From: Calditrichia bacterium
GTDB taxonomy: Bacteria > Calditrichota > Calditrichia > RBG-13-44-9
Direction: 5' to 3'
DNA: 20,935 bases
Assembly (NCBI GenBank): GCA_037381445.1
Contig: JARRQT010000188.1
Location: 1 to 20,935, forward strand
The translations under genes and the position numbers were made by a program. Shown here in pieces: positions 475 through 20,935 of this stretch (position 1 is its first letter; each line of letters begins with the position of its first letter). The notes beneath the pieces are model-generated. The model did not search any database. It was not told the origin of the DNA and worked only from the letters and a program-made list of their open reading frames with translations.

Positions 475-1839
<1,365 letters not shown>

Positions 1840-2420: not shown

Positions 2421-5378
2421 ATGAATCTGGCATCTGATTTTGAAGTTCAATTCAGCGGCTTTCATGACCTCATGAAGTTCCGGGTGCGTGAAATACTTCT
2501 GGTTTCCAGCCTCTACGACGCATTTGTGCTGGAAGAAGACGGCCGCCTGGCGGAAAGAATTTTCAGTGAATATCTCGATCTCAACCTTCATTTTATCCCC
2601 CGCATTTATAAAGTGTCCACAGCAGAGGAAGCGCTCAGGGCGCTGCAAAATCAGTCGTTCGACCTAGTCATCACCATGGCCCGTATCTCCGATATGAATC
2701 CCATCGAATTCGGACAGCGGGTCAAGGAAATGGATCCCGAAAAGCCGGTGGTCCTGCTCACTTACGACGTCATCGATCCCGTTCTTCTGGAGAAGATCCG
2801 CGAAGTGAAAAGCATCGATAAAGTATTTTACTGGTCCGGAGAATCAAAGATACTGCTGGCAATCATAAAATATGTGGAAGATTTAAAGAATGTGCCGTAT
2901 GATGCGCCCGCCGGTGTGCAGGTGATCCTGATTATCGAAGACTCGCCAAAATTCTATTCTCTTTTTCTGCCCTACATCTATACCGAAATCATGACCCAGA
3001 CCCGCCTGCTGATATCCGACGGCGTAAATGATCTGCACCGGATGCTGCGGATGCGTGCCCGTCCCAAAATTCTGATGGCAGAGTCCCTGGAGGATGGTTT
3101 AAATATTTATGAAGCCTATAAACATAATCTTCTGGGAATCATTTCCGATGTGCGGTTCCCCAATCAGGGTGTGCTGGACGCACAGGCGGGATTACTATTG
3201 GCGGAGAAAGTAAAATCCGAGGTCTCGGATCTTCCCATTTTGCTGCAGTCCTCCGACGACAAAGCCAGGCAGCGGGCGGAACAACTGAATGCCACCTATC
3301 TCAATAAGAGTTCTCCCAATCTGGGCCTGGAATTGAAAAATTTTATCCTGCATAATTTCGGATTCGGGGAATTTATCTTCCGCCATCAGGATGGAACCGA
3401 AATTTGCAGGGCCCGGAACCTGACTGAATTTACCTCGAAGATTCCCACTATTCCCATCGAGAGTCTGGAATATCATGCGCGGCGAAACCATATTTCCATC
3501 TGGCTGAGGGCCAGGACGGAATTCGAACTCGCCGATGAACTGCGCCCCATACAGGTTTCCGACTTTTCCGACGCGGAAGAAATGCGGAATTTCATTTTGA
3601 AGGCACTGCAGAGGCGTATCGATCAGCTCCAATTGGGCGTTATAAAGGATTTTGGCTCCTCCCAATATTACGCGGACAACACCTTTATCCGCATCGGAAG
3701 CGGATCCCTGGGCGGGAAAGGCCGCGGACTCGCTTTTATAAATGCCCTGCTCGCCAATAGTGCCGCCTTCGGGAAATTCCCGGATATTGACATCAAAACG
3801 CCGCAAACCTTTGTCCTGGGAACTGAAGTTTTCGAAGAATTCATGGAAATGAATAATCTGCAGGAGTTTGCTGTCAATTGCCGGGACGAAGAGAAAATCG
3901 CCGCACGGTTTCTGGACGGTAAATTTCCTGCAAACATTACTCATGATCTCTTCGCGCTGCTGGAGAAAATCAGCTATCCGCTGGCTGTCCGTTCCTCCAG
4001 TTTGCTGGAAGATTCCCAGCTCCTGCCGTTCGCCGGGATGTACAAAACCTATATGATACCCAACAATCATGTGGATCTTCGCGTGAGAGCCGGGCAGCTT
4101 CTGGATGCGATCAGGCTGGTATATGCTTCCGTCTACTTTCAGAATCCGAAAGAATATGTCAAAAACTCTGGGTTCCGGATAGAGGAAGAAAAAATGGCGG
4201 TCATCATCCAGCAGGTTGCGGGCGTCCATTACGGGCAGTCATTTTATCCTGTCATATCGGGTGTGGCGCAATCCTATAATTTTTATCCCATATCTCACAT
4301 GAAGCCCGAGGATGGAATCGTGCATCTGGCCATGGGTTTGGGAAAGATCATCACGGACGGCGAACAGATTTACCGGTTCTCGCCGGCCTATCCGCAGATG
4401 AATCTACCCTACAGTTCCGCACTGGAGTATGTGAAGAATTCCCAATCCAGCTACTTGACGCTGGATATTGGCAAACCGGGCCTGAAAGTACAGCTGGATG
4501 AAAATTTCAGCCTGAAGAAGCTGGAGATATCCAAAGCTGAAAATGACGGCACCCTCTTTTTCATCGGAAGCAGCTATTCACCGGAAGACGGACGGATTCA
4601 GGATTCGCTTCACATAAGCGGCCCGCGAGTTATTACTTTTGCCAACATCCTAAAATACAACATATTTCCCCTGTCGGACCTGCTGCAGAATCTGTTGTCC
4701 CTGGGAAAAACCGCATTCGGCACCCATGTGGAGATTGAATTCGCCATCAATTTGTACAAAAAGAACAGAAAAAAACCGGAATTCTATATTCTGCAAATCC
4801 GCCCCATGATTGCAGGTAATGAAAATTATGAGGTGTCGGTGGATTCTATGGATCCTCGTACTTCCCTTTGCTTCTCCAATCACGCCATTGGAAACGGCAT
4901 ATTCCGTAATATCTTTGATCTGATTTACGTCAAGCCGGAGGATTTCGATATCTCAAAAAGCGACCGGATTGCCATGGAGCTGGATGAACTGAACCAGTCG
5001 CTGGATGAAGAGCAGCGGAACTATATTTTGCTGGGATTCGGCCGCTGGGGCACCGCCGATCCGTGGCTGGGAATCCCGGTGGAATGGCACAATATTTCGC
5101 AGGCCAAGGTGCTGATCGAGACCAGCCTGGGCGATTTCAATATCGAGCCGTCATCCGGAAGCCATTTTTTCCACAACCTGATTTCCCTTCGCCTGGGATA
5201 TTTTTCAATCCGGAAGATGGGCGAGACTGAACACATTTCCTGGGACTGGATCCGCCGGCAGCCGGCCTATCGCGAAACGAAATTCCTGCGGCATTTGCGT
5301 TTTGAACACCCCTTTGTGGTGAAAATCGACGGAAGGACCTCCACCGGTCTGATACTAAAACCCAATGGGCAGATATAA
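2421..5378 (+). CDS. Receiver-domain protein fused to a PEP synthase/PPDK-like ATP-grasp domain (pseudo-REC + REC + DUF5752-like + PPDK_N + HFF domain)
   Basis: REC motifs VILIIED...IISDVRFP...LLQSS...LNK. PPDK_N motifs GSLGGKGRGL, LAVRSSSLLED, FAGMY, MAVIIQQV, GLGK, EIEFA, LQIRP. C-terminal GRWG and SSGSHFFHN. Confidence 0.9.
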   Translation: MNLASDFEVQFSGFHDLMKFRVREILLVSSLYDAFVLEEDGRLAERIFSEYLDLNLHFIPRIYKVSTAEEALRALQNQSFDLVITMARISDMNPIEFGQRVKEMDPEKPVVLLTYDVIDPVLLEKIREVKSIDKVFYWSGESKILLAIIKYVEDLKNVPYDAPAGVQVILIIEDSPKFYSLFLPYIYTEIMTQTRLLISDGVNDLHRMLRMRARPKILMAESLEDGLNIYEAYKHNLLGIISDVRFPNQGVLDAQAGLLLAEKVKSEVSDLPILLQSSDDKARQRAEQLNATYLNKSSPNLGLELKNFILHNFGFGEFIFRHQDGTEICRARNLTEFTSKIPTIPIESLEYHARRNHISIWLRARTEFELADELRPIQVSDFSDAEEMRNFILKALQRRIDQLQLGVIKDFGSSQYYADNTFIRIGSGSLGGKGRGLAFINALLANSAAFGKFPDIDIKTPQTFVLGTEVFEEFMEMNNLQEFAVNCRDEEKIAARFLDGKFPANITHDLFALLEKISYPLAVRSSSLLEDSQLLPFAGMYKTYMIPNNHVDLRVRAGQLLDAIRLVYASVYFQNPKEYVKNSGFRIEEEKMAVIIQQVAGVHYGQSFYPVISGVAQSYNFYPISHMKPEDGIVHLAMGLGKIITDGEQIYRFSPAYPQMNLPYSSALEYVKNSQSSYLTLDIGKPGLKVQLDENFSLKKLEISKAENDGTLFFIGSSYSPEDGRIQDSLHISGPRVITFANILKYNIFPLSDLLQNLLSLGKTAFGTHVEIEFAINLYKKNRKKPEFYILQIRPMIAGNENYEVSVDSMDPRTSLCFSNHAIGNGIFRNIFDLIYVKPEDFDISKSDRIAMELDELNQSLDEEQRNYILLGFGRWGTADPWLGIPVEWHNISQAKVLIETSLGDFNIEPSSGSHFFHNLISLRLGYFSIRKMGETEHISWDWIRRQPAYRETKFLRHLRFEHPFVVKIDGRTSTGLILKPNGQI

Positions 5379-5485: not shown

Positions 5486-6294
5486 GTGCCTGAATGCTTT
5501 TTTGTATCCGATTTGCACGGCCATACAGACCGCTATGATAAACTGTTTAAGGCCATTTCGGGAGAACCTCCCGCTGCCATTTTTCTGGGGGGCGATCTGC
5601 TGCCCCACGACGGCAAACTGAAGCAAGCCATGAGTCTTTCCCACCGGGATTTTGTAAATGATTATCTGGCCGAAAATTTCAGGAAACTGCGAGGGCAATT
5701 GGGGGAAGCGTATCCATCTGTTTTCTTAATACTGGGGAATGACGATGCACGCTATCAGGAGGCGGCGATACTTGCCGCGGCCGGCGAAGGAATCTGGAGC
5801 TACATCCATAATCGTAAAATTAATTTTCGGGAATATGAGGTCTATGGTTATGCCATGGTTCCGCCCACCCCCTTCCGCCTGAAGGACTGGGAACGCTATG
5901 ATGTGTCCCGTTTTGTGGATCCGGGCTGCATCTCCCCCGAATCGGGATGGTACACGGTGCCTGTTTCGGAAAATATCTGATAAACTCCATATTTCTTTTT
6001 CATACCCCGCCCTACCAGACTGCACTGGACCGGGCGGCGCTGGACGGAAAAATGATCGATTATGCGCCGCTGGATGTGCATGTGGGAAGTATTGCCGTGA
6101 AGCGATTTATTGTAGGCCGCCAGCCGCTCATCACCCTGCACGGGCATGTGCATGAATCCGCCAGGATCACCGGCAAGTGGCAGGAAAAAATCGGAAGGAC
6201 ATATGCCTTTTCCGCAGCCCATGACGGTCCCGAGCTTGCCCTGGTGAAATTCGATCCGGAACACCCGGAGAAAGCCCGCCGGGAACTGCTCTGA
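5486..6294 (+). pseudogene. Calcineurin-like metallophosphoesterase split by a frameshift (ORFs 5486-5980 and 5947-6294)
   Basis: SDLHG, GGDL and GNDD lie in the first frame; LFHTPP and HGHVH lie in the -1 frame. Together they make one complete motif set. GTG start. Confidence 0.85.
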
Positions 6295-6295
6295 G

Positions 6296-9200
6296 TTATT
6301 TCACCTCATTTTTCAGCGGCAGCGGCCGGGCCGGATCTGTGATTGCACCGATCTTGAGCGCAAAACTTTGCTTTTGACGAATATCTTCATCGGTTACCAG
6401 ATGCACATCGAGTAACCCATCGCTTTTATATCCCGTGCGCTGGTAATTCATTTCCGCCAGGCAGTGGCTCCAGCCATCCAGCCACAATAAGAGATCAGCC
6501 CGTTGGTCTTCGGTTCCGTCAAAATGGATCAGAATATCAATATCGCTGCCCGGGCCGGCCGTAGCATTCTTGGTGCTGCCAAAGATATAAAATCCCTTCA
6601 CGCCAAACCGGTCGGGATCAATTTGTGAAGCGATCCGGGTGGCCATTTGCAGGCGCCAGCGCCAGAACTCTTCTCCGGTTTTTCTCTTCATGGAGTAGGA
6701 TTCTTCGGGATACATATCAACAGGGGAAGAGGGCGATGCCAGCACGCCCAAGGCCTCGTCCAAATCCGCATTCATGAGAATACGGAGCACATAGCCATTG
6801 GTGCTTTTGGGAACATCGATCACCCGCACGTACTCCGAGAGATGGGAAAATTCAGGTGCGATATCCGCCAGAATATTCGGGGACTTCAGCAGAAATCTTT
6901 CATTAAAGATGATTCCCTCTTCATCCGGATAAAGCGGCAGATACCGGATGGCCGATTCCACCAGATCCTGGAAAAAATGGGTGCCGAAAGAGAGATCGGG
7001 CGTATAATTTCCTTTTTTGCGGGCGATTTCAATCAGAACAGCAGTATTATTAATATCGGAATATGTGACGCATACGCCCAGTTTGATATCGCCCCGGCTG
7101 CCCCATCGTCCCGGCCCCATTAAAACAAATTGACGTTTGGGAAGGATTTTATTCAATTTTCCGATGGTTCTCCCGATTTCCCGGAGTTCTTCCAGACTCG
7201 TAATATTAGAATATGCCTCAGGATCGACATAGGCAATGTGCGTGATGTCGGGCGAGCGGCCATTGGAAATATATTTGTTCGCGGTGAAAAGAATCCGGTC
7301 CTCAGGAATATCCCTTGGAATGGGGGCTGCCACCGCATCTTTTGAAAAGCTCTGCGGGCGGCATTGCAGGAGATAAAAATTCTGGCCGTCGTGGGCAAAT
7401 TCAATATCCACCGGATATCCCAGCTTTGACTGCAGCAGGTCAAGTATGGCTTTCAACTGCTTTACGAAGGAATCCTGACTGACCAGTCCTTCAAAAGTCA
7501 CCACCAGATCCTCTTTCTGAAAATCTATTTGCATCCCGAACGGCTTTCTCAGGTGGTGGTCTTCCGCAACGGACACTATCCTATTAATCTTGGGATATTC
7601 TTCGCCGTATTCACGCAGTAAATCACTGACATCCACAGTTTCAAAACTATTGGTTTCAAGATTAATGATATCGATCTGCTTTGGCGAATATCTCACTATT
7701 TCTTCGGGAGTCACATTGACGCGAAGGCCCGGCTGACCGGGTGCGATAAGAATGGGATAATCGTCGCTTAATCGATCGACGGCGCGGGTTCCCAGTCCGG
7801 GCACCAGCCGCAGCAGACCATCTTCGCGCTTAATCCGCGGCGACCAGCGGAATTCATTGTTGCTGAAAGCCACGCCGGCAAAGGCGGGAAGGAAATATTT
7901 CCCGACCTGTTTTCCAACCACTTCCTGGATGAGAATGCCCATCTCCTCGTGAAAATCCAGCAGCTTTCGTTCGGCGCGGTATTCAATGGGATCGGGGCTG
8001 AAGGTAGATGAATAGACTTCTGCAATGGCGTCCAGCAGCGCCTCCAGCCGCTCTTCCTTGGTCCCCTGATTGGCCAGGAACAGGCTTTTATACTTGCCCG
8101 AAAAAGCTGATCCCAGGCGGTCTTCCAATAAACTTGAGCTCCTCACGATCAGCGGCTTATCCCCCAGATCATCCAGCACCACCGAGAGCCCTTTAACGAT
8201 TTCCGGCGGAAAATGGGAATTGATAAACACCTGCACGATGTGCGGATATTCTTGCCGGATCTGCCCGATATCCTTATATTTCTGCTCAATGACTTCTTCA
8301 AGGTTGTTATAATGAAGGAAGCTGAGAAGGCCGTCCGAAGTGATATACCATGTGCGGGGTGTTTTCACATCACACACTGACGGACATTCTTCAACAGATT
8401 TTCTGATGATCTGGTAAGCCAGAAAGAGCCCGGCGCTTTTGCCCCCCAGTTTTCCGTGGCTTCCCGTGGGATAAATCATGCGCTGTAAAAGATTATAAAA
8501 TTCGGACACGTCAACATAGTTCTTGGCGATATTGATAAAATCCAGCTGATCGGTAAAGAATCTGCGGATCAGCGACACATTCAATGTCTTTTTGGTCGAT
8601 TCGGACAATTCAAGACCTTCGGGTGCCAGATGATAAAAACGCATAATGGCATCGCAAATTTCAGTCAGGGAAGTATCCTGGTTTTCCAGTGCCCGCATCA
8701 GAAAGCTGGATTTGTCCTCCTGGATCCATTTCTGTATCATGGAAAGAATTTCTTTATCGCTCAGATGTTCGGCGGCAATTTCGAATATTTTATCCCCTAA
8801 TTGTAGCGTATTGTCCACAAAAGTTTTCTGAAGCGGACGATTTGCTTCCCCAAAGATATCCGGCTCTTCGTTCCTCCGGTCCCCTCCAAAATATTGCATT
8901 AATTCCTGGGCCGATTTCACACCGTGCCATGAAAGGTAATTCATCATTTTGCGGGAAATCCGCACGTACAGGTTGTGATCGGTACGTTGCAGCAGGTCAA
9001 GAATGACCCTCCATTCCCCTTTATGGTTTTCGCTGACATCTTCCCGCACTGTCTGCCATTCCCGGAAAGTTGTTTTCAGGTTTCGGTACAACAAAAAATG
9101 CCCCAGCCGTTCCGCAATGGTGTTGATCAATCTCCGTTCTTCCTTGAGAAAGGGACCTTCGTCAGCCGTGGGACGCTCTTCAGTATAATACACCTCCACA

Positions 9201-9487
9201 ACGCCCACAGCCCTGTCCTGAACTTCTATGGAAGCTTTCTGCACCCATTTTGTCTTCGGGAATTTCATTGAGCGGTAAACAGAGTTGCCATAGCGGATAA
9301 TGACCTGACAGACATCGGGATACTGCCAGCCCTGCGGGATAACATTCACAAGTGAATGGAAAATTTCATCCATGGATGCATCAGGATTATTCAATACCTC
9401 CTCAATCCCGTAGAGGCAATTCAGCTCCTTTGCCCTTTCCTTCAGGGATTCCAGCAAAATTTCTACTGATTTGTTTTCAATTTTCAT
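6296..9487 (-). CDS. PEP synthase/PPDK-like ATP-grasp protein with an N-terminal GAF-like sensor and a C-terminal nucleotidyltransferase domain
   Basis: N-terminal ERAKELNCLY...GWQYP...GPFLKEE (a sensor segment I recognise from histidine kinases). Core GKLGGKSAGL, LIVRSSSLLED, FSGKY, GLGT, DIEFA, LQCRP, GRWG, SFGTHFFQD. C-terminal FGS...SDIDIL...LLDVH. Confidence 0.9.
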   Translation of the reverse strand: MKIENKSVEILLESLKERAKELNCLYGIEEVLNNPDASMDEIFHSLVNVIPQGWQYPDVCQVIIRYGNSVYRSMKFPKTKWVQKASIEVQDRAVGVVEVYYTEERPTADEGPFLKEERRLINTIAERLGHFLLYRNLKTTFREWQTVREDVSENHKGEWRVILDLLQRTDHNLYVRISRKMMNYLSWHGVKSAQELMQYFGGDRRNEEPDIFGEANRPLQKTFVDNTLQLGDKIFEIAAEHLSDKEILSMIQKWIQEDKSSFLMRALENQDTSLTEICDAIMRFYHLAPEGLELSESTKKTLNVSLIRRFFTDQLDFINIAKNYVDVSEFYNLLQRMIYPTGSHGKLGGKSAGLFLAYQIIRKSVEECPSVCDVKTPRTWYITSDGLLSFLHYNNLEEVIEQKYKDIGQIRQEYPHIVQVFINSHFPPEIVKGLSVVLDDLGDKPLIVRSSSLLEDRLGSAFSGKYKSLFLANQGTKEERLEALLDAIAEVYSSTFSPDPIEYRAERKLLDFHEEMGILIQEVVGKQVGKYFLPAFAGVAFSNNEFRWSPRIKREDGLLRLVPGLGTRAVDRLSDDYPILIAPGQPGLRVNVTPEEIVRYSPKQIDIINLETNSFETVDVSDLLREYGEEYPKINRIVSVAEDHHLRKPFGMQIDFQKEDLVVTFEGLVSQDSFVKQLKAILDLLQSKLGYPVDIEFAHDGQNFYLLQCRPQSFSKDAVAAPIPRDIPEDRILFTANKYISNGRSPDITHIAYVDPEAYSNITSLEELREIGRTIGKLNKILPKRQFVLMGPGRWGSRGDIKLGVCVTYSDINNTAVLIEIARKKGNYTPDLSFGTHFFQDLVESAIRYLPLYPDEEGIIFNERFLLKSPNILADIAPEFSHLSEYVRVIDVPKSTNGYVLRILMNADLDEALGVLASPSSPVDMYPEESYSMKRKTGEEFWRWRLQMATRIASQIDPDRFGVKGFYIFGSTKNATAGPGSDIDILIHFDGTEDQRADLLLWLDGWSHCLAEMNYQRTGYKSDGLLDVHLVTDEDIRQKQSFALKIGAITDPARPLPLKNEVK

Positions 9488-11244
9488 TTTAAAATCACTC
9501 CTCTGCCTGATCTTCCATCCACTTTTACCTGCAAGGGTGAGGCGAGTTTCACGTGTTTGGTATAGATTAATTCATTGACCACACGCTGCCGGTTGAGCCA
9601 CTGCCAATCGATTTCATATTTTCCGGAGTGCCGGACGGAAAAATAGAGTACCTTAAAACTGGTTATGTTGTGAAAAAAATGAGAACCCTGGCTCAAATCG
9701 ACATTGACATGGGGCAAGGTGGCTTCTACAATAACTTTTGCTCCGGAAATCTGTCCCCAGTTTACCGGAATCCCCAGCCATGGGTCCGAACTTCCCCAGC
9801 GGCCAAAGCCGAGTAGCAGGTACGGGATTTCCGAACTCAGCAACTGATTATTTATTCTTTCCAGCTCATCCACCACGACGGCGGAAACCTCCGTTTTAAA
9901 ACTTTCCGGCTTGACATACACCACATCACTGATATGCTCCACAATCCCATTGCCCAGTACATTTTCGGAAGCAACCAAAACATGTTCACTTTCAAGATCA
10001 TCGCGAGAAATTTCAACCTTTTCCTTTGAAACGACCATCGGGCGGACCTGCAAAAATCCGAAACGGGCGGGTACTCCCCTCCTGGCATCGAGAGTGACAG
10101 CAAATTCAATTTCCACCGGTGCAGACACACTCTCGCTGCATATTTTAAGCAGGGATTGAATAATTTCGTTCAAAGGCATCTGACCCATTTGCAGAATGGG
10201 GGCAAAATTTATCAGCTTTGGAGCACTGCCGGCTGCCCCGGGATAGAGCCGGTCAGATTGAGGATCATATGTGGAAGCAATATATTTCAAGGCGCCGGCC
10301 TTTTCTGCTTCTCTCAACGTTAATTTAAGCAGGTATTCCGTTTCCTTTACCGGATCAAAAGCCGGCGGTTTTCCCATATTCACCGCCCAGTAAGAATTCT
10401 GGCTTTCCTTCAGCAGATCCCGGATGGAATTATAGGGCGGATTGGCCCTCGGATAAGCGGGCGAGTAGCTCCATGAAATGCCCTCATCGACGATGGTTCT
10501 GCCCAAGCCCAGGGCCAGGTTAACGATGCCCTCCTCCGGCCGGGCATTACCTGCCGGGTAAAAATTATAAGACCGTGCCACACCTGATATGGTCGGGTAG
10601 TAGTGATCGTCAAAGCGCTGTCCAACCACCTCCTGAATGATGACAGCCATTTTTTCGTCTTCAATCCGGTGACGGGTCGCCTTGAAATAATTTTTGGCGG
10701 CCCTGAAAAAAGTCGAGGCATATACGTATTTGATTGCTTCCACCAGCTTATGAAACCGGCCCTCGGTATCAAACTGGTTGTTAGGCGTCATCTTGGTCCC
10801 ATAGATACCCGCAAAAGGTTCGTAGAGCGCATCTTCCAGCAAACTGGAAGAACGAATGGCCAGTGGAGAATGCACTTTGGAGATAAGCGCCCACAGATCG
10901 CCCACCAGTTTCGCGGGCAGTTCGGTATTTTGAAATGCGTGCGAGATGCGGTTATCAGGCAGATCGGAAAGCGCAATTTCATACAGATTATTTAGTTTCA
11001 TGAATTCATCAAAAAATTCCGTGGTAATTACCGTCATGGTTGGAATCGAAACAGAAATACCCGGAAAGTCCGCATGGTTAAACTGCTCACGAAGGATGTC
11101 CCGGATGAACACCAATCCCTGCGCTTTTCCCCCCAGTGATCCGGAACCGATGAACGTAAAATTTTCATCCGAATCGAAAAATTTACGCTCAAAGCGGGAC
11201 GGTCCCTGGGTTGCACTATGGCTGTTTTTTTCTGTTCGTGTCAT
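9484..11244 (-). CDS. Stand-alone PEP synthase/PPDK-like ATP-grasp protein with HFF domain
   Basis: GSLGGKAQGL, LAIRSSSLLED, FAGIY, MAVIIQEV, GLGR, EIEFA, LQVRP, GRWG, SQGSHFFHN. ATGA overlap (9484-9487) with the next gene. Confidence 0.9.
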   Translation of the reverse strand: MTRTEKNSHSATQGPSRFERKFFDSDENFTFIGSGSLGGKAQGLVFIRDILREQFNHADFPGISVSIPTMTVITTEFFDEFMKLNNLYEIALSDLPDNRISHAFQNTELPAKLVGDLWALISKVHSPLAIRSSSLLEDALYEPFAGIYGTKMTPNNQFDTEGRFHKLVEAIKYVYASTFFRAAKNYFKATRHRIEDEKMAVIIQEVVGQRFDDHYYPTISGVARSYNFYPAGNARPEEGIVNLALGLGRTIVDEGISWSYSPAYPRANPPYNSIRDLLKESQNSYWAVNMGKPPAFDPVKETEYLLKLTLREAEKAGALKYIASTYDPQSDRLYPGAAGSAPKLINFAPILQMGQMPLNEIIQSLLKICSESVSAPVEIEFAVTLDARRGVPARFGFLQVRPMVVSKEKVEISRDDLESEHVLVASENVLGNGIVEHISDVVYVKPESFKTEVSAVVVDELERINNQLLSSEIPYLLLGFGRWGSSDPWLGIPVNWGQISGAKVIVEATLPHVNVDLSQGSHFFHNITSFKVLYFSVRHSGKYEIDWQWLNRQRVVNELIYTKHVKLASPLQVKVDGRSGRGVILK

Positions 11245-11443: not shown

Positions 11444-12730
11444 TTACACCCATCCCCGGTCTCTGCAGGCCTGGGCGACGCGGCTGATGGCAATGACATA
11501 AGCGGCATCTCTCATGAATAATTTCCGTTTGCGTGCTGTTTCACTGACCGCCAAATACGCTGCCGTCATTTTGACATCCAGTTTGCCCAGCACTTCATCC
11601 TTCTCCCAGAAATAATTCATATTGCTCTGCACCTGTTCAAAGTAGCTGCAGGTAACGCCGCCTGCATTGGCCAGGAAATCAGGAATCAGGAAAATACCGC
11701 GTTCGTCAATCACCTTATCGGCTTCGGGCGTTGTGGGACCGTTTGCGCCTTCAGCAATAATTTTGACCCTTTTGCTGATTTTATTGACATTATCGCCAGT
11801 GATCTGATTCTCAATGGCGGCAGGAATTAAAATGTCCACATCCTGCTCCAGCCATGCCTCACCGGGAAGAACTTCGTAACCCAATTCCCGGGCTTTCCCT
11901 TTGTCGATACCGCCGAATTTATCGGTGATCTTTCTGAGTTCTTCCAACTTTACGCCGGATTTCTTCAGGAATGTATAGGAAGTCTGATCATGCTGATCCC
12001 AACTGGAAACGCAGATCACCTTGCCGCCCAATTGCTCGTACAGCTCGATGGCATACTGGGCTACATTGCCAAATCCCTGCACGCTGGCAACGGTTTCCTC
12101 GGGACGAAGTCCCAGTTCCTTCAATGCTTCGCGCACCGTGAAAATAACGCCATAACCGGTCGCTTCCGTACGGCCGAGAGAACCGCCCATACCCACGGGT
12201 TTTCCAGTGATAAAACCGGGATATTGTCCGCCGTGAATCGCTTCAAATTCATCCCGCATCCAGAGCATATGCTGCGCATTTGTCATCACATCGGGAGCGG
12301 GGACATCGTTTACCGGACCGACATTTTTGGCAACCTGGCGTACCCAACCGCGGCAGATCTGCTCCTGTTCGTGCATACTTAGATTGTGGGGATCGCAAAC
12401 CACACCGCCTTTGCTTCCGCCCAGCGGAATGTCCACAACTGCGCATTTCCAGGTCATCCAGGTCGCCAGTGCCTTGACGGTATCAACTGTCTCCTGGGGA
12501 TGGAATCGGATGCCGCCTTTTCCCGGTCCGCGTGAATCATTATGCTGCACTCTAAAGCCTCTAAACACTTTCATGCTTCCATCATCCAGACGAACCGGAA
12601 TACTGAAATGGTATTCCCGTAAAGGATTCCTTAATAAATCGCGTGTAGCGGTGTCCAGATCCAGAATATCGGCAACCCGATCGAATTGTGCCTGCGCCAT
12701 TTCAAATGGATTAAAAGCTTTGTTACCCAT
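11444..12730 (-). CDS. gdh: Glu/Leu/Phe/Val-family dehydrogenase, most likely an NAD(P)-dependent glutamate dehydrogenase of the RocG/GudB/Thermotoga-like subfamily
   Basis: GPGKGGIRFHP, MTWKCAVVDIPLGGSKGG, DVPAPDV, ITGKP, GRTEATGYG, QGFGNVA, EGANGP, PDFLANAGGV. Start placed at ATG 12730 (MGNKAFNPF) because AAGGAAAGGG lies just upstream; the ORF track starts at 12784. Confidence 0.93.
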   Translation of the reverse strand: MGNKAFNPFEMAQAQFDRVADILDLDTATRDLLRNPLREYHFSIPVRLDDGSMKVFRGFRVQHNDSRGPGKGGIRFHPQETVDTVKALATWMTWKCAVVDIPLGGSKGGVVCDPHNLSMHEQEQICRGWVRQVAKNVGPVNDVPAPDVMTNAQHMLWMRDEFEAIHGGQYPGFITGKPVGMGGSLGRTEATGYGVIFTVREALKELGLRPEETVASVQGFGNVAQYAIELYEQLGGKVICVSSWDQHDQTSYTFLKKSGVKLEELRKITDKFGGIDKGKARELGYEVLPGEAWLEQDVDILIPAAIENQITGDNVNKISKRVKIIAEGANGPTTPEADKVIDERGIFLIPDFLANAGGVTCSYFEQVQSNMNYFWEKDEVLGKLDVKMTAAYLAVSETARKRKLFMRDAAYVIAISRVAQACRDRGWV

Positions 12731-13303: not shown

Positions 13304-13951
13304 TTATGCCACTCCCTGGGACCTGAATTTCGCATCCGCTAGTTTCTTCAATTTATTGTATAATGCACCTGTCTGTTTTTCAAGGGCTTTCAGGTCGCGG
13401 TTATTCTGAACGACAAAATCAGCCCACTTGATTTTATCTTCAATGGGAATCTGCTTTTTTATGCGGTCGACAATTTCCTTTTCAGACAATTTATCCCGCT
13501 GTTTAATTCTCTCAATCCGTAATCCCATGCGGGAGGCCACAACCACAATGGCGTCAAACATATGTTCCAGGCTAAGCTCGTAGATCAGTGCTGCATCCAC
13601 AGCGATAATTGAATACTCACCGGATTCCCGTGCTTCTTCAATCAGGTCGAGGATGCGGGCAACCATTTGGGGATGGACAATTTTATTCAGCCGATTCGTT
13701 TTTGCTTCATCGGAAAATGCGATATTGGCAAGCAGTTTTCTGTTAAGTTTGCCATTCCGGTAAAAAATATTCCTGCCAAAAGCTTTTCTTAATTCCTTTT
13801 TGATTTCTTCATTATTCTCGACCTCCTGCTTTGCCACCATATCAGCGTTGATCACCTTTATACCCATTTTTTCCAGAAAATTGCAGACGGTAGATTGACC
13901 GCATCCCATACCGCCGGTGACCGCTACCACTATTGAATTTTTATAAATCAT
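13304..13951 (-). CDS. coaE: Dephospho-CoA kinase (atypical Walker A)
   Basis: VAVTGGMGCGQSTV, INADMVA, LNRKLLANIAFSD, LNKIVHP, DAALIYE, ADFVVQN. GGAGG RBS upstream. Confidence 0.92.
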   Translation of the reverse strand: MIYKNSIVVAVTGGMGCGQSTVCNFLEKMGIKVINADMVAKQEVENNEEIKKELRKAFGRNIFYRNGKLNRKLLANIAFSDEAKTNRLNKIVHPQMVARILDLIEEARESGEYSIIAVDAALIYELSLEHMFDAIVVVASRMGLRIERIKQRDKLSEKEIVDRIKKQIPIEDKIKWADFVVQNNRDLKALEKQTGALYNKLKKLADAKFRSQGVA

Positions 13952-13962
13952 CTGCCTGCCTC

Positions 13963-16900
13963 CTATCTCAAAACGACAAATTTACCCAACTTCTTCTGAT
14001 TCCGGTATTTTGCGAGAAATATATACACTCCACTGGATACCTTTTCATTAACCCCATTCTTTAAATCCCAACGGATGCCTCCGTTCTGAACCTGATCTTC
14101 GAGCCGGGCCACCTGCTGCCCATTCACCGTATATATAAAAATTTCGCAACCATCGGGCAGGTTTCCAAACATAATTTCATTTTTGCCTTCCGAAACACGA
14201 AACGGATTAGGGTAAACAACGATATCAGCCAAAGATTCAACTTCACCTTCGACCAGATATCGGTTAGCCCAATTCGATGGAATGATCTGGCCGTAGGCGT
14301 CCTTCAATCCCGAAATTTCAAGATAGTATTTAATACCGAGGCTCCCCATGCGGTTTTTCCCCGACAGATAAAGGTGGACAATGCTGCCATCAAGGGAATC
14401 CAGACTGGCCTTGATCACCCGGCCGTCCGGGATAAGCCGGTAATTATCGAAATTTTCAATACTCTTTCTATCCATGAAGTGATTGAACCTCAACAGGAGC
14501 CGTCTTTTGGAAACAAATTCCACCTTTTTCAAATAGGGACTTTCAGGAGTAACGGGCTGGTCAAAATTGATGCGCAGCGTATCACTGCAGAATGGTACAC
14601 CATATTTATTGCGCAGATTGCCAAAAACCAGTTGGTGATTGCCGGGCGGAAAGGCTTTTAAGAATCCCAGCAGAATCTGTTCTTTTCCCTTTCCCCTGAT
14701 GGCACTGATTGGCCGGATTGAATCCGGAAGCAGAAGATACAAATCATTCTGAAATGACTGGTCACCCAGCGGCTCGGAAAAATGCAGCATTATCTGATGG
14801 GCATCCTCTACGGTAAGCCCCTCAAAAGCAGGCGGATTGGATGCGCTCACTTCAATCTCATTTCCCGGTGCGCTCAGCGTATCCGGAAATGACATATCTA
14901 CGGTCCGGACAAAATATGAATAGAGAACATTTGATGAAACCATTGTATCACAGAAAGTTGTGTGAGAAGTTTGAAATTCGCGGATCGAGCCCGTATCCTT
15001 CTGTGTCCGGCCAATCAGGTAAGAATCTGCTCCGCTTACCGTTTGCCAGGATAAAATTATATGGCCCGTGTCAGCCTCCTCAGTCTGCAGCGCGGCGGGC
15101 GGCAATGGCCTTTTTCCCTCCTCTGTTTTCTGCCATACCGCGAAAGATGCATCTCCGGCCAGTATGAAATGATTTCCATCCAGGAGCGGCACGGCACTGC
15201 AGTTCACACCCTGATAATACCAACTCACCTGATATTGGTGGTCCTGGTAATTTATAAAATATGCTTTGGGATAAGGGGTAAAGAAGAGCTCGTCCGCCCG
15301 GTCACCATCGTAATCGGCTGCTGTCAAACCACTATAAGTATTTTTCTGATTCGAGACACCGTGGAAGTTTTGCTGCCAGATGGTTTGCAGGGAGTTATCT
15401 CCATCGGATTTCAGGATGCTCAGATTCCAATACTGCTGATCAACAGCGGACTCGGCCTCGTAATCCGCTCTGACCTGGGTAGCAATGGCCAGCTCCTGCA
15501 GATTGTCTCCGTCAAAATCGCCCAGTGCAAAACAGCTCGTGGCATCTGCGCCGGGCAGTCTCTTCTGAAAAACGGGCTCAAAGCTGCCGGAGGTATTCTC
15601 TTCATAGACAATCAGATCGCCGTCATAGTCGCCGATGATAATTTCCCTCTTCTGGTCACCATCCAGATCCGCCATTTCAGCGAAGGGGATTCCATAATTG
15701 TTGTCGCCCTTAGTGGGATTTTCCAGCGTCTGAAGCTCCCTTACCGAAAATGTTTCCGGATTATCCAGCCGGTAGATATGCCACTTGTTCTGATGCAACG
15801 CCAGTATGTTAACGGCGTGATCGACACCGGTATAATACATCCGGGAGCCCCAGAAATCATTTAGAGGACATTGAACAGGGGGAGAAGTAAATCCCGGGAG
15901 GCTTCTGCCCGGAAACAGGTATGAGATACCGCCATATCCGGCCAGGATTTCCGGCAGGGAATCTCCGTCGGTGTCCAATACATCGCGTGGGAAAGCCGGC
16001 ATGGGCCCCACCTGCCGTTCGAGAGCGCCGTCAACATAAGTTATCAGTGAGATGCGCGGTTCCGGAAAATCCGGCCAATTCGCATTGGCGATGATTTCCC
16101 GGATTCCGTCCCGGTTAATATCTACTGTTTTAGGATAAAAATAGCCTGTGCCCCGCTCTTCGGTCATTTTCTGAAAATCCCCGGTAAAAGTGTTATCCTG
16201 AGCTAAATCCAGTTGATAAAAAGCATGGGAATTATCAGCTTCGGTAGTCAGCCCGGACGGATTGATCAATTTGAAATAGTACTCGATATCACCCGATATT
16301 TCTTTGTGGGACAATAAAAAAATGTGCTCATTATTAAAATAGCCGGAAGTGCAGGATTGCCAATCGGCCGAAGTCCCTAACGGCCTATAGTGCAGGGTTG
16401 CAATGGTTTTATCATCTGTTTTCAATTCCAAAAGATAGCCGCTATAGTTGTCGAAAATCATGGGAATGACTTTCAGCGAATCCACAGTAGGCGCACTGCG
16501 GTCCAGATAGACAATCGCGCGTTGAACAATATCGCTCAAATCCTTATTGATCAGCTTCAGTTCGAGGGTATATACGGTATCGGGCAGCCCGGATAAATTC
16601 CACCATCCCAGGGTATCAGCCACAATATGATCCGTACTCTCATGAAATGGAATCATTTTATCAGGAGCTTCCCCGGTACCGTAGGACAGAACGTAATGAT
16701 CCATATCCGGAGCGGTGGCGGTGCCGATAATTGGTTCGGAATCCTGGCAAATCCCGCCTTGCGTCGAAGGGGAAATCAGATTAGCAACGCCTCCGAATTC
16801 CGATGTGAGGCTGTTTTCAACATTCACGAGGCCCTGTCCGAAATATTTGTCCCATCCCGCTGCCCCCAGATCTGTGCAGCCCGCCAGCAATTGAGATTTT

Positions 16901-17826
16901 ATTTCCCCGGCATCCGCCTGCAGGTCATGCGACCACAGCAGGCCCAGTGCGCCGCTCACCAGCGGCGCCGAGAAACTGGTCCCGTTCATTTCGCCATACT
17001 GATTTCCGGGAACCGGTGAAAGAATATCCTGTCCCGGCGCCACCAGATCGATTTTCGAACCATAGCTGGAAAATGAAGCCAGTCTGTCGGTTTGTTCTGT
17101 GGCCCCTACCGAAATAGTTTCATCATAAGCGGCAGGATATTGGAGAACATCATTCCCTGAATTTCCGGCGGACACCACAAACAATGCGCCCATTTTTGTG
17201 CCGAAATCCACCGCATCTTTAATGAGGTGGGAATAGACAATATCTCCGAAACTCATGTTGATGATCCTGCACCCGTTCCGGATGGCATACACCACAGCCT
17301 CGGCAATATCATCCTCCTCCAGGTAGCCGGATGCCGTGCCCGCGCGCAGCGCCATCACTCTCACCGCCGGGGCGACGCCGGAAATTCCCGAAAAGTTATC
17401 GGCTTCTGCTGCAATCAATCCCGCAACCGCCGTTCCGTGCCCGCCAGGATATTCATCCATAGGGTCATTATCCGGCTCCAGGTAGTCTCCAGTGTCGGGG
17501 AAATCAGGCGCATCGGTAAAATCCCATCCGATGACGTCATCGATGTAGCCGTTGCCGTCATCATCAATATTGTTCAGATCGCCGGCATCCAGCCGACCGT
17601 TATGATTCAGGTCTTCCCCACTATTGATCCACAACTGGTTTCTCAGGTCGGGATGCTCGTAATCAATCCCTGTGTCAATCACTCCCACTATCACCTGCGC
17701 AGAACCCTTCTCAATATTCCAGGCCTGTTCCATCCCGATTTTTTTCATGGCCCATTGGCGTCCATAAAGCGAGTCATTGGGAACGTAATGGATTTTATAG
17801 CGGTAATTGGGTTCTGCCCATTCCAC
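13963..17826 (-). CDS. S8 (subtilisin-family) serine peptidase with FG-GAP repeats, an Fn3-like domain, probable Ig-like domains and a Por/FlgD-type C-terminal domain; true 5' end uncertain
   Basis: Catalytic VIDTG, GHGTAVAG and GTSFSAP, plus oxyanion SAGN. Five DxxxDxxxE-type repeats. C-terminal YPNPF...IYTVNG...WDLKN...SSGVY. Frame remains open upstream to 17985. Confidence 0.9.
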   Translation of the reverse strand: MEWAEPNYRYKIHYVPNDSLYGRQWAMKKIGMEQAWNIEKGSAQVIVGVIDTGIDYEHPDLRNQLWINSGEDLNHNGRLDAGDLNNIDDDGNGYIDDVIGWDFTDAPDFPDTGDYLEPDNDPMDEYPGGHGTAVAGLIAAEADNFSGISGVAPAVRVMALRAGTASGYLEEDDIAEAVVYAIRNGCRIINMSFGDIVYSHLIKDAVDFGTKMGALFVVSAGNSGNDVLQYPAAYDETISVGATEQTDRLASFSSYGSKIDLVAPGQDILSPVPGNQYGEMNGTSFSAPLVSGALGLLWSHDLQADAGEIKSQLLAGCTDLGAAGWDKYFGQGLVNVENSLTSEFGGVANLISPSTQGGICQDSEPIIGTATAPDMDHYVLSYGTGEAPDKMIPFHESTDHIVADTLGWWNLSGLPDTVYTLELKLINKDLSDIVQRAIVYLDRSAPTVDSLKVIPMIFDNYSGYLLELKTDDKTIATLHYRPLGTSADWQSCTSGYFNNEHIFLLSHKEISGDIEYYFKLINPSGLTTEADNSHAFYQLDLAQDNTFTGDFQKMTEERGTGYFYPKTVDINRDGIREIIANANWPDFPEPRISLITYVDGALERQVGPMPAFPRDVLDTDGDSLPEILAGYGGISYLFPGRSLPGFTSPPVQCPLNDFWGSRMYYTGVDHAVNILALHQNKWHIYRLDNPETFSVRELQTLENPTKGDNNYGIPFAEMADLDGDQKREIIIGDYDGDLIVYEENTSGSFEPVFQKRLPGADATSCFALGDFDGDNLQELAIATQVRADYEAESAVDQQYWNLSILKSDGDNSLQTIWQQNFHGVSNQKNTYSGLTAADYDGDRADELFFTPYPKAYFINYQDHQYQVSWYYQGVNCSAVPLLDGNHFILAGDASFAVWQKTEEGKRPLPPAALQTEEADTGHIILSWQTVSGADSYLIGRTQKDTGSIREFQTSHTTFCDTMVSSNVLYSYFVRTVDMSFPDTLSAPGNEIEVSASNPPAFEGLTVEDAHQIMLHFSEPLGDQSFQNDLYLLLPDSIRPISAIRGKGKEQILLGFLKAFPPGNHQLVFGNLRNKYGVPFCSDTLRINFDQPVTPESPYLKKVEFVSKRRLLLRFNHFMDRKSIENFDNYRLIPDGRVIKASLDSLDGSIVHLYLSGKNRMGSLGIKYYLEISGLKDAYGQIIPSNWANRYLVEGEVESLADIVVYPNPFRVSEGKNEIMFGNLPDGCEIFIYTVNGQQVARLEDQVQNGGIRWDLKNGVNEKVSSGVYIFLAKYRNQKKLGKFVVLR

Positions 17827-17989
17827 TGCTTCATCGGAATTCAGTTGATTAACGAAATCCTCAATGTCCGCGGAAGAATCTGTTTTGAGAAGATAATAGT
17901 CATCAGATTGCGATATCCCGGTTGTTTGCTGGTGCTTGAAAAGAATGTCGAACGCGGATGGCCATCGACCGGCCCCTGGAGGGAATCAT

Positions 17990-18016
17990 AAAATAAAAGA
18001 AGGGGCAAAAGCCCCT
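17990..18016 (-). terminator. Rho-independent terminator downstream of the TPR gene
   Basis: Minus strand AGGGGC-TTTT-GCCCCT-TCTTTTATTTT. Confidence 0.75.
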
Positions 18017-18108
18017 GTTTGAATGTTTGTCTTTACACCGCACCCGTAAGAACCAAAAATTATATTAATTTTATAAAATAGAGTATCTGTTTCCAGTGAA
18101 AGAAAGAA

Positions 18109-19530
18109 TCAGGGTTTGTCTTTCGGAGAAGATTTCTGTTTGTCAATAATAACCTGGAGGTCCTCTATTTTCCGGCCATAACGGGGATTCTCAGGATCCT
18201 TCTCCAGCAACTGTTTGAAGACGTCAATGGCTTCTTCAAAACGCCCCTGGGCAATGTAGATCTCACCAAGGGTCGGAGACAAGATCGGCGGGCGGCTGGA
18301 ACGTGAACCCTCCGGTTGTTGTGGCACCTCAGTCTCAGGTTCTTCCGCTTCTTCTTCCGGCGCTGCTTCTTCCGCTTCCTCTGTTTCAGGGAGAAAATCG
18401 GGTTCATCCGGTTCCTTCCGGGCGCTGATTTCCTTTTCTTCCATTTCCGTTTCGACATCCTCAGATTCCGGTGTTTCGGAGATGGTGTCTCTCAGAATGT
18501 ATTCCTGTTCGGACTCATCCCCCAATTCTTCCGGCGCTTCCTGCAGTTCTTCAGATTCTTCCAGCTCATGTTCCTCCTCCAGCAGTTCCTCGTCCTCACT
18601 CTCAACCTCGTTTTCCCTTTCAGATATCAAATCGGATACAACCGCACTGAAATCCATCGGCTCTTCCTCAATAAACTCTTCCGGGAATTCCTTTTCCTCA
18701 AGCTCCGTGCCTTCCTCCGTTTCGGCCTCATCCAATTCCATAAGTTCGCTTCCATCCTCCGATTCTGCAGCGGCTTCTTCATCAGAAGATTCTTCCTCTT
18801 TTTCATATTCTTTGAAAAATGAATCAAAGGCATTCGAAAACTCATCCCGGTCCAGAATCGTCTCTTCACCCAGCGTATCTTCTTTTGGCTGCGCCTCCGG
18901 TTCTTCCGAGACATCGGGTTCGGGCTCACTTTTATCTTCCTTCTTGGAGACGTCTTCCATTGTTTCTTTAAAAACCTCATCCAGGGTTTTCTGAAAGTCA
19001 GTATCTTCCTCGGGGATTCCGGTGCTGTCGAGTAGATTTTCGATTTCTTCTTCACTTAAATCTTCCACTTCTGCCCCGGTCTGCTCTTCAAATTCCACAG
19101 GTTCTGTTTCGGGTGCAGGGGCATGTTGTACAAGGTCTTCACCGAAAAACCTCTCGCCGGCCTCATGGTTGAATATGTCGTTTAGATATGCCCTCAGGTA
19201 GTCTTCCTTTGCCAGTGTCATTAAGTTCAGATGCTCATTAATCTCCCCCAGTAGTTTCCATGCCTTCGGGGCGGCCGGATCAAGGGCCAGGGAAATTTCC
19301 AACTCATGTTTGGCGTCGGAATAATTTTTCATATGATAGTTCGCCAAACCAAGGATATAATGGCCGAATGGAAAAGCAGGATTCTTTTGCAAGCCAGCCT
19401 GGCATATTTCAGCCGCCCGCTCATATTCTCCCTTTTCCAGTAGTCGCGAGGAATAAACTGCAAAAATAACGGAAGTTGGATTGGACTCATAGAAATTTTC
19501 AAGTTTCTTTAAATCCAGAAAATGGGCCAT
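18109..19530 (-). CDS. Tetratricopeptide-repeat protein with a long acidic low-complexity linker
   Basis: N-terminal TPR-like helices (GHYILGLANY, AWKLLGEI), an E/D-rich middle, and a C-terminal TPR (SPTLGEIYIAQGRFEEAIDVFKQLL). Confidence 0.85.
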   Translation of the reverse strand: MAHFLDLKKLENFYESNPTSVIFAVYSSRLLEKGEYERAAEICQAGLQKNPAFPFGHYILGLANYHMKNYSDAKHELEISLALDPAAPKAWKLLGEINEHLNLMTLAKEDYLRAYLNDIFNHEAGERFFGEDLVQHAPAPETEPVEFEEQTGAEVEDLSEEEIENLLDSTGIPEEDTDFQKTLDEVFKETMEDVSKKEDKSEPEPDVSEEPEAQPKEDTLGEETILDRDEFSNAFDSFFKEYEKEEESSDEEAAAESEDGSELMELDEAETEEGTELEEKEFPEEFIEEEPMDFSAVVSDLISERENEVESEDEELLEEEHELEESEELQEAPEELGDESEQEYILRDTISETPESEDVETEMEEKEISARKEPDEPDFLPETEEAEEAAPEEEAEEPETEVPQQPEGSRSSRPPILSPTLGEIYIAQGRFEEAIDVFKQLLEKDPENPRYGRKIEDLQVIIDKQKSSPKDKP

Positions 19531-19602
19531 CTTTTCCCCTTTGAAATTATTTTGTCAGTCTTGTATAATTTATAACAGATGGATTTAAATTAAAAACATT
19601 TT

Positions 19603-20103
19603 TTACCATGCTGCAATGGTATTATTGATAATATCATCAACAATCTGATCAATGTCATCGGATATGGCCGTATCGATGTCAGTCCGGAGTGCTGCCCCCG
19701 GGATAACACTAAATCTGGAAAGTGTGCTGCCCCACAATGGTTTATTGATATGGGTATTCAAACATTCTGCTTTAATATTCACAACCATCTGATATTCCTG
19801 AACCTGCTCCTGCTGCGTGATGCTGACCGGTCTGCGATCGATAGATGTGATAGCACCGCTAAGCACCAGATCCGCATCTTTCTCGTTGTTTATGACCGTC
19901 AGTGAATTGTCTTTGATAAATGCTTCGGTCACTTTCTGCATAAATTCCTGCTGGACGCCCGGGTAGGCGGTCTCATTTTCAAAATCCGCGATATAGATTG
20001 TTTTCAGATATGAAGGCAGCGCTCCCTTGAATGAATAACGCACGCACGAAAATGACCATGAAAGTGCCAGCAGTAGGATAATAAAAAATTTATTGAATGT
20101 CAT
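19603..20103 (-). CDS. lptE: LptE-family LPS-assembly lipoprotein
   Basis: Signal peptide ending in SFS-C, then [25 protein letters not shown] and a C-terminal W. Position after the sigma54 activator matches the gene order I recall in FCB-group genomes. Confidence 0.75.
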
Positions 20104-20935
20104 AGTCCTTGAGTTTCCGGTATAAAGTTCTTTCGCTTATCTGCAATGCCTGAGCGGCCTTTCTTTTATTTCCATGGTATTTTAGGAGAGCCCTTTTTAT
20201 CATTTGCTTTTCCATTTCCTCAATCGGCTGAATATCTTCATGAAAGACAATATCTTCAACCTCACCATGCACCGTTTGGTTATTTATATTTTGATTTAAA
20301 TTCAGAAGGATTTCTTTCATTTCGCGCACCTCCACACCCAGAGAGAGCAGCGCTTTATAAATAAGTTCGCGTTCCGTTTGATCCACACTTTTATGGACGG
20401 GAAGAGGCAAAAACGAATTTGAGTCTGGAATCTCCTTGTAATGAATCAAATGTTCTTTTGCCAAATCAGCGCTAATTTTTTTGCCTCCAGACAGGATTAT
20501 CACCGAGTCCACAAAATTTTTTAATTCCCTGATGTTGCCCGGCCAGTCATAGTCCTCTATTATTTCCAGCGCTTCATCGGCGAATCCGGCGAATTCAATT
20601 CTATTTTCTGAGAGGGTCTGGCGAATAAAGTAATCCAGTAACAGAGGGATGTCCTCCCGACGCTGACGAAGCGGGGGCACAAAAATAGTAACAGCCTTTA
20701 GACGGTAGTATAAATCCTTGCGAAACTGGCCAAGCTTGACCATTTCTCCCAAATCCCGGTTGGTCGCGGCAAGAATGCGGACATCTACTTTACGAAGATC
20801 GCCGCTTCCCACCCGCATAAATTCACCGCTCTCCAGCACCCGCAGCAATTTCACCTGGGTCTGCACAGGCGTTTCCCCTATCTCATCCAGAAAAATAGTA
20901 CCGCCGTCCGCCAATTCGAAATAACCCTTTTTCGT
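20090..20935 (-). CDS. Sigma54-dependent transcriptional activator (AAA+ and Fis HTH), 5' part beyond the window edge
   Basis: [56 protein letters not shown], and [24 protein letters not shown]. Frame is open to the window end. Overlaps lptE by 14 nt. Confidence 0.95.

Follow-up and report, generated by a model that had tools for sequence, protein, structure and literature searches.

Organization of the locus

The window, by which we mean the whole stretch of 20,935 nucleotides of Calditrichia DNA analyzed here, carries glutamate dehydrogenase (GDH) genes together with dikinase-like genes and a metallophosphoesterase gene, arranged as follows:

475..1827, minus strand: NADP-specific glutamate dehydrogenase (family I; NCBIfam PRK09414 above cut-off), divergent from the 985-aa gene
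2421..5378, plus strand: 985-aa receiver-domain dikinase-like paralogue, upstream of MPE and in the same orientation
5486..6294, plus strand: MPE, calcineurin-like metallophosphoesterase with a GNDD motif, convergent with the fusion gene; break at 5974/5975
6296..9487, minus strand: fusion gene, 1063 aa, encoding GAF, helical linker, dikinase ATP-grasp, swivelling His domain and minimal nucleotidyltransferase
6299..6667, minus strand: minimal Pol-beta-type nucleotidyltransferase, aa 941-1063 of the fusion (PF01909, fold, conservation)
6734..7315, minus strand: putative divergent swivelling phosphohistidine-type domain, aa 725-918 (fold matches, conserved His)
7343..8470, minus strand: PPDK/PEP-synthase-type ATP-grasp, aa 340-715, with GGK, RSSS, G-x-G and LQ-x-RP motifs (PF01326)
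9053..9469, minus strand: GAF sensor domain, aa 7-145 (fold matches)
9484..11244, minus strand: P586, a 586-aa sensor-less dikinase-like paralogue with ATP-grasp and His domain
11444..12730, minus strand: GDH2, a 428-aa glutamate dehydrogenase from a clade of its own, the most constant neighbour of the fusion

P586 and the fusion gene share an ATGA, in which the stop codon of the first overlaps the start codon of the second, and natural P586-fusion gene fusions occur among the core representatives. Positions 13304-20914 hold ordinary genes: a dephospho-CoA kinase, an acidic TPR protein, LptE, a sigma-54 activator fragment and, by motif, a secreted subtilase-like protein.

A C-terminal domain of the Pol-beta superfamily

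The 1063-aa product of the fusion gene reads FYIFGSTKNATAGPGSDIDIL, with LLDVH further on. The catalytic signature G970-S971-x10-D982-I983-D984 plus D1027 lies within aa 941-1058 and is encoded on the minus strand, with GS at 6580-6575, D982-I983-D984 at 6544-6536 and D1027 at 6409-6407, which confirms the residues and coordinates given in the preliminary description (DID at 6536-6544, third Asp intact). That description had proposed a Pol-beta-type domain fused to the C-terminus of a dikinase-like sensor protein, and profile and structure searches bear this out. NTP_transf_2 (PF01909) matches aa 959-995, scoring 36.5 bits where 21 is the Pfam cut-off (E 6.7e-9). The predicted structure of aa 718-1063 has a pLDDT of 92, and the top fold matches of its C-terminal part are minimal nucleotidyltransferases: 2rff comes first (Z 7.7, rmsd 4.2, 103 aligned), followed by 8xeh_E (Z 7.5, rmsd 3.0, 97 aligned), 1wot (Z 7.0) and 1no5 (Z 6.9), while the GlnE N-domain scores just 4.8. 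Z values below 8 are middling, yet motif, profile and modelled fold agree on the nucleotidyltransferase assignment.

The catalytic residues are also conserved. The five signature residues (G, S and three D) do not vary among 104/104 top homologues, which were selected on the transferase region; in sets of long forms assembled without ranking on that region, all five are found in 70/80 GTDB loci and 53/60 loci of the window's own phylum. The C-terminal domain is a real and probably active member of the Pol-beta superfamily.

Several specific identities were considered. The domain is shorter than 150 aa and contains GSX10DXD, as expected of MNT proteins; MNT antitoxin identity was nevertheless rejected, since there is no adjoining HEPN gene with RX4HXY and NF047752 (MntA) reaches 20.4-25 bits against a cut-off of 60. 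GlnE or GlnD identity was likewise rejected: Pfam and NCBIfam searches of the fusion found no GlnE/GlnD domains, no ACT or HD domain and no duplicated transferase, and the architecture is GAF, ATP-grasp, His and MNT-like. Profiles of class I adenylyl cyclase, CD-NTase and RelA/SpoT did not match the fusion, and CdnD reaches only rank 48 in Foldseek.

The dikinase-like core and the sensor

PPDK_N (PF01326) spans aa 346-726 of the fusion with an E value of 3.6e-60, and the ATP-grasp domain, whose motifs were read by aligning homologues from the same genome, matches rifampin phosphotransferase (RPH, 5hv3) with Z 23.8. The GAF fold of aa 10-145 matches 3cit (Z 12.6), the NifA GAF (Z 11.8) and the PtsP GAF (Z 11.1); because these matches are all nearly tied, they point to no particular ligand. 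Together, the PPDK_N and GAF matches substantiate the dikinase-like sensor part of the preliminary description.

The segment between the ATP-grasp and the transferase (aa 725-918) has no Pfam match. Compared alone, it resembles the PPDK phosphocarrier domain 2fm4 with Z 5.5, as well as the His domain of RPH (5hv1 756-867) with Z 4.8. In context, residues 307-920 of the model superpose on PEP synthase 2ols 13-467 (Z 23.3, 358 aligned), and the whole fusion model also superposes on PPDK 11-527. His837 (6979-6977) lies within S-x-G-[TS]-H-F-F, and the strand-loop-helix-strand spacing around it fits a canonical swivel domain. This His is invariant in 150/150 aligned rows of three paralogue types, a count that is partly circular because the pattern used to find the loci contained it, and it is kept by most of the more distant core representatives. 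Profile comparison with canonical swivel domains gave a probability of 0.2%, from shallow alignments. From the model, we infer that aa 725-918 form a swivel domain of divergent type, in which H837 would be the phospho-His; a reading of the core as swivel-less is not supported by the fold matches. A second His of this domain, H750 in P0001, is present in 100% of MPE-bearing rows and 43% of MPE-less rows. In the long forms P0289, P0320, P0326, P0361 and P0269 the ATP-grasp or His motifs have decayed and the transferase domain is intact.

The core lacks the pyruvate/PEP-binding barrel, and in profile searches the PEP synthase models, whose cut-offs are at least 598 bits, reach only about 55; the window's genome encodes a separate PPDK and other PF00391 proteins. 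As in PEP synthase, PPDK, rifampin phosphotransferase and HpeI, the ATP-grasp and swivel domains superpose jointly; unlike those enzymes, the fusion has no pyruvate- or drug-binding domain. A precedent for an ATP-grasp plus His protein with a regulatory role is VadK (Rv1127c), a PPDK-derived His kinase that phosphorylates itself and controls metabolic enzymes by binding to them (PMC13400623). With VadK, the fusion core would share an ATP-grasp, a putative phospho-His domain and the missing pyruvate barrel; it differs in a His domain too divergent for PF00391, in its sensor and transferase fusions, in its paralogue pairs and in its GDH linkage.

Among 150 core representatives, every full-length transferase-bearing form has a GAF domain, and the 590, 760-790 and 850-880-aa forms have neither; six GAF-bearing representatives lack the transferase. 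The 850-880-aa representatives (P0266, P0297, P0373 and others) fuse the ATP-grasp and His core to an extra N-terminal region that has no Pfam match and whose start we take, by motif, to be KaiC/RecA-like; in P0266, two cores flank this region.

Linkage to glutamate dehydrogenase

The neighbourhood was surveyed in the best 80 of 590 GTDB matches, with records from many phyla. All 80 contain the transferase domain, and within this set a GDH2-clade gene lies upstream of the fusion in 58/59 sufficiently long loci, a P586-type paralogue at 58/73 and MPE downstream of the fusion at 37/64. The link to GDH genes, first noted from the window itself, holds. Across all 86 genomes of the window's phylum (probably Calditrichota, judging by the nearest P586), the transferase domain and the GDH2 clade occur together in 61 and are both missing in 19, with GDH only in five and the domain only in one. 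The dikinase-like family is found in 71 of these 86 genomes and in 349 of 401 sampled Bacteroidales genomes, and the P-type and NT-type genes examined all tend toward a gdh neighbourhood. No HEPN gene lies beside the fusion in the window, nor is there a recurrent HEPN-sized neighbour cluster at the surveyed loci. In the literature searched (main texts without supplements, with scarce coverage of subscription journals), we found no description of a GDH-dikinase module.

The receiver-type paralogue often has a third GDH beside it (L370-L377, L385, L390-L408), with 43-48% identity to GDH2, and the window's genome has a similar GDH on C258. Compared with 1euz, GDH2 (11444-12730) has the clade-specific insertions WDQxDQxSY and GIDKxKAxxLGY at aa 241-290, in the nucleotide-binding domain.

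The phosphoesterase partner

The reading frame of MPE is broken at 5974/5975 by 55 missing bases. Contigs from three runs carry the stretch, one of them near-identical to the window, and with the 55 extra bases the two halves of MPE fall in one frame; the frameshift is thus an assembly artefact, and we rejected the reading of MPE as a true pseudogene.

Calcineurin-like monoesterases and cyclic phosphodiesterases are marked by the GNH His and the motif-II Arg, and MPE has neither mark as a rule: GNDD replaces GNH in 130/132 MPE sequences, and the motif-II Arg is mostly absent, occurring in five sequences within the six commonest motif variants. In CthPnkp, the equivalent residues His264 and Arg237 are required (PMC2190708) for monoesterase and 2',3'-cyclic activity and dispensable for acyclic diesters. 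By analogy, MPE would be an acyclic phosphodiesterase, a predicted activity that suits removal of an NMP from a protein hydroxyl; the roles of protein phosphatase or cAMP phosphodiesterase would fit poorly. A PDB search with MPE returned no match. At the loci compared, P586 and MPE are both present in 38, P586 only in 13, MPE only in one and neither in 11; In G016 and G018 the transferase is canonical and MPE is retained, with no P586 found.

Short forms reveal a separable writer-eraser candidate

In two genomes of the window's phylum, a 284-286-aa gene encodes GAF and transferase with no core, and MPE follows directly. Such short forms, which surfaced solely in whole-phylum searches, number at least 120 proteins of about 285 aa, and the motif is intact in all (catalytic triad in 120/120). 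In a search for stand-alone homologues of 70-224 aa, 120 of 450 matches were listed, and the nine inspected are fragments of the long fusion. Of 40 short-form loci in Bacteroidales, one lacks an intact transferase ORF and two end at a contig edge; in 34 of the remaining 37, with GAF+transferase or transferase-only genes, a co-oriented MPE lies at most 35 bp downstream. MPE also adjoins the short form in 16/21 metagenome loci. A distant GAF+transferase group (L226, L239, L241, L244, L254, L259, L263, L265 and L266) has an intact triad and an altered C-terminus, with neither an adjacent MPE nor an adjacent gdh at these nine loci.

The tight coupling of this two-gene unit across varied contexts would also suit a toxin-antitoxin or defence pair, in which the transferase tags tRNA or an essential target and MPE reverses the tag, or an orphan MNT antitoxin; weak PADLOC matches to PDC-S09 and PDC-S10 and the weak MntA match (20.4 bits against 60) point the same way. 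A mobile pair of this kind would hardly be kept in 62/86 genomes of the phylum and track one GDH clade, and with no HEPN gene or recurrent HEPN-sized cluster nearby we regard this explanation as very improbable.

The 401 Bacteroidales genomes contain the transferase in 44, MPE in 52 and both in 40, with the transferase only in four; the 12 genomes with MPE and no detected transferase are a point against a writer-eraser pair. The transferase and MPE are thus restricted to about 11% of Bacteroidales, and at least two P-type paralogues occur in 40/44 transferase genomes versus 123/345 of the others, counts that are confounded by kinship. This narrow distribution, set against the P-type genes in 349/401 genomes, also counts against a metabolic explanation, in which dikinase-like proteins use ATP to activate a substrate of GDH and the transferase adds or recycles a nucleotide in that chemistry. 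Such a machine would fit the gdh-adjoining tendency of the P-type and NT-type genes and a core structurally nearest the small-molecule dikinases RPH and HpeI; it is at odds with a core that has no substrate-binding domain and occurs joined to signalling domains of several kinds (GAF, receiver and, by motif, KaiC-like), and we hold it to be most unlikely.

Of 39 short-form loci, nine have P-type dikinase genes around them and 11 are close to gdh. In 21 of the 34 longer loci, neither a gdh nor a dikinase-like gene is nearby, and a unit of sensor-synthase and hydrolase whose product is a nucleotide signal free to diffuse, such as a linear dinucleotide or an NMP-metabolite, would act in trans from just such unrelated positions: the transferase would synthesize the signal, MPE would destroy it, an acyclic diesterase being likewise suited to cutting such molecules, and the GDH or dikinase proteins would bind it. 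Close to some loci, beside gdh, there is a Crp-family regulator with an N-terminal GAF of the same family (L313:2127-3269, L337, L342), as a signal receptor might be; it lacks, however, both the Glu and the Arg that we take to be the cAMP-binding pocket motif, and it has no orthologue in the window's genome. The transferase is moreover MNT-sized, with no second substrate-binding domain, and matches none of the cyclase, CD-NTase and RelA profiles. We consider a diffusible signal unlikely, at about one chance in five in our judgement.

Co-decay of the catalytic motif and MPE

We classed 111 long-form rows by MPE, setting aside short contigs and any locus that has P586 but shows no MPE, and assigning six second copies by hand to the MPE-less class. 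The G-S-D-D-D motif is broken in 11/51 MPE-less rows, scattered across the tree, versus 0/60 MPE rows, and the C-terminal AxKIxAxTD is kept in 57/60 MPE rows versus 9/51 MPE-less rows. In eight independent pairs, change in the opposite direction almost never occurs, with a sign test that is not significant (median p 0.125-0.25). Strict dependence of the triad on MPE is disfavoured, since the triad is intact in 40/51 MPE-less rows and the nine distant loci have no adjacent MPE.

This persistence of the triad while the rest of the domain drifts, and the many core relatives that lack the transferase domain entirely, could mean that the domain is a nucleotide- or metal-binding regulatory module for the dikinase core with little or no transfer activity. 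That explanation has to account for transferases that occur alone or with GAF only, for an invariant triad, for a coupled hydrolase gene, and for P0289, P0320, P0326 and P0361, which have lost His-domain motifs and kept the transferase intact; we judge it improbable.

Candidate targets

Protein nucleotidylation being the preferred reading, we asked which protein would carry the tag. A column scan of receiver-type paralogues and of family-I GDHs revealed no hydroxyl or His column that clearly splits sequences with MPE from those without it. In GDH2, six of the 14 most discriminating columns fall in segment 373-386 (p 1.5e-4 for random placement, kinship ignored), which stays conserved alongside MPE and P586 and drifts elsewhere, a comparison in which loss of P586 is confounded with loss of MPE. 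Within it, Y373 is found in 96% versus 55%, mostly with Phe instead, the MPE-less class being largely one clade. Complex prediction for the transferase domain with P586, ATP and Mg gave an uninformative score of 0.00 (2/79 rows of the P586 alignment are receiver-type).

In the five short-form Bacteroidales genomes examined, neither the GDH2 clade nor the long-form core was found, and each genome carries a pair of P-type dikinase-like genes as well as GDHs that are more distant. The paralogues are slightly favoured: both settings have them, they surround the pair at nine loci, and 40/44 transferase genomes encode at least two; the adjacent GDH is less fitting because its clade was not found in those five genomes. 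Dikinase-like paralogues of the 586/985-aa type are therefore the most likely candidate target, tentatively and at well under even odds, and GDH itself is the next candidate, a doubtful one. The earlier suggestion of a nucleotidylating enzyme directed at GDH or a partner gains as to nucleotidylation of a protein, through MPE, and loses ground as to the adjacent GDH: its clade was not found in 5/5 short-form genomes, and neither a gdh nor a dikinase-like gene is near 21/34 longer short-form loci.

A proposed model of reversible nucleotidylation in GDH control

We propose, with a probability of roughly 55%, that the locus carries out reversible protein nucleotidylation within a GDH control module, the putative transferase being the writer and MPE the predicted eraser. 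The GAF domain would sense a carbon or nitrogen metabolite and gate the writer; the transferase would then place a nucleotide, probably AMP on a hydroxyl residue, on a protein of the GDH module, and the neighbouring calcineurin-like MPE would strip it. The dikinase-like proteins would load an ATP phosphate on the swivel His, and would either pass it to GDH or use it to bind GDH. The domain layout, the conserved motif, the gene order and the occurrence of GAF, transferase and MPE apart from the dikinase core are observations; the steps of this scheme are predictions. Co-inheritance of the phosphoesterase makes a protein-nucleotidylating role better supported than it was from sequence alone.

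MntA provides a precedent: it AMPylates a Tyr of its partner with an identical GSX10DXD motif (PMC7641770), which shows that this motif and a domain of this size suffice for such a reaction. Like MntA and other MNT proteins of type VII HEPN-MNT systems, the transferase has GSX10DXD, a third Asp and a minimal fold of about 120 aa (Z 7.0-7.7); unlike them, it is fused to GAF with or without the dikinase core, has no HEPN partner and is paired with a phosphoesterase.

A second comparison is with GlnD (UTase/UR) and GlnE (ATase/AR), Pol-beta transferases that combine metabolite sensing and a removal activity with a link to nitrogen assimilation. The system described here likewise has a Pol-beta transferase, a sensor, a predicted removal activity and an adjacent nitrogen-assimilation enzyme; it differs in having GAF rather than ACT, a separate calcineurin-like putative eraser, and GDH rather than glutamine synthetase. 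The analogy with GlnE drawn in the preliminary description consequently holds at the functional level only, the domain being MNT-sized and the likely eraser a separate protein. Most likely, judging by this analogy, the transferase works as the GlnD and GlnE writers do, within a module linked to GDH in which another protein would be the eraser.

A more specific version, which we put forward as a possibility with the odds against it, is a two-tier GDH cascade spread over many phyla, in which a GAF-gated transferase and MPE reversibly AMPylate a PPDK-derived histidine dikinase that switches GDH. GDH stands at the junction of carbon and nitrogen metabolism, and to our knowledge little is known of covalent control of bacterial GDH compared with glutamine synthetase. 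If true, the cascade would be a GDH counterpart of the GlnD/GlnE-glutamine synthetase cascade made from different parts. Going by the title of a 1996 paper by Baggio and Morrison (cited in PMC4539542), trans-acting genes downstream of gdhA reportedly influence GDH activity in Bacteroides, and the module would be a candidate for these genes. The dikinase-like family is in any case not rare, given its presence in most of the Bacteroidales and own-phylum genomes counted above, and the short GAF-transferase and MPE unit is a small soluble pair that is directly testable. MNT-type AMPylation would, if the model is true, reach beyond toxin neutralisation into reversible metabolic signalling, and would be joined there by a calcineurin-like de-nucleotidylase.
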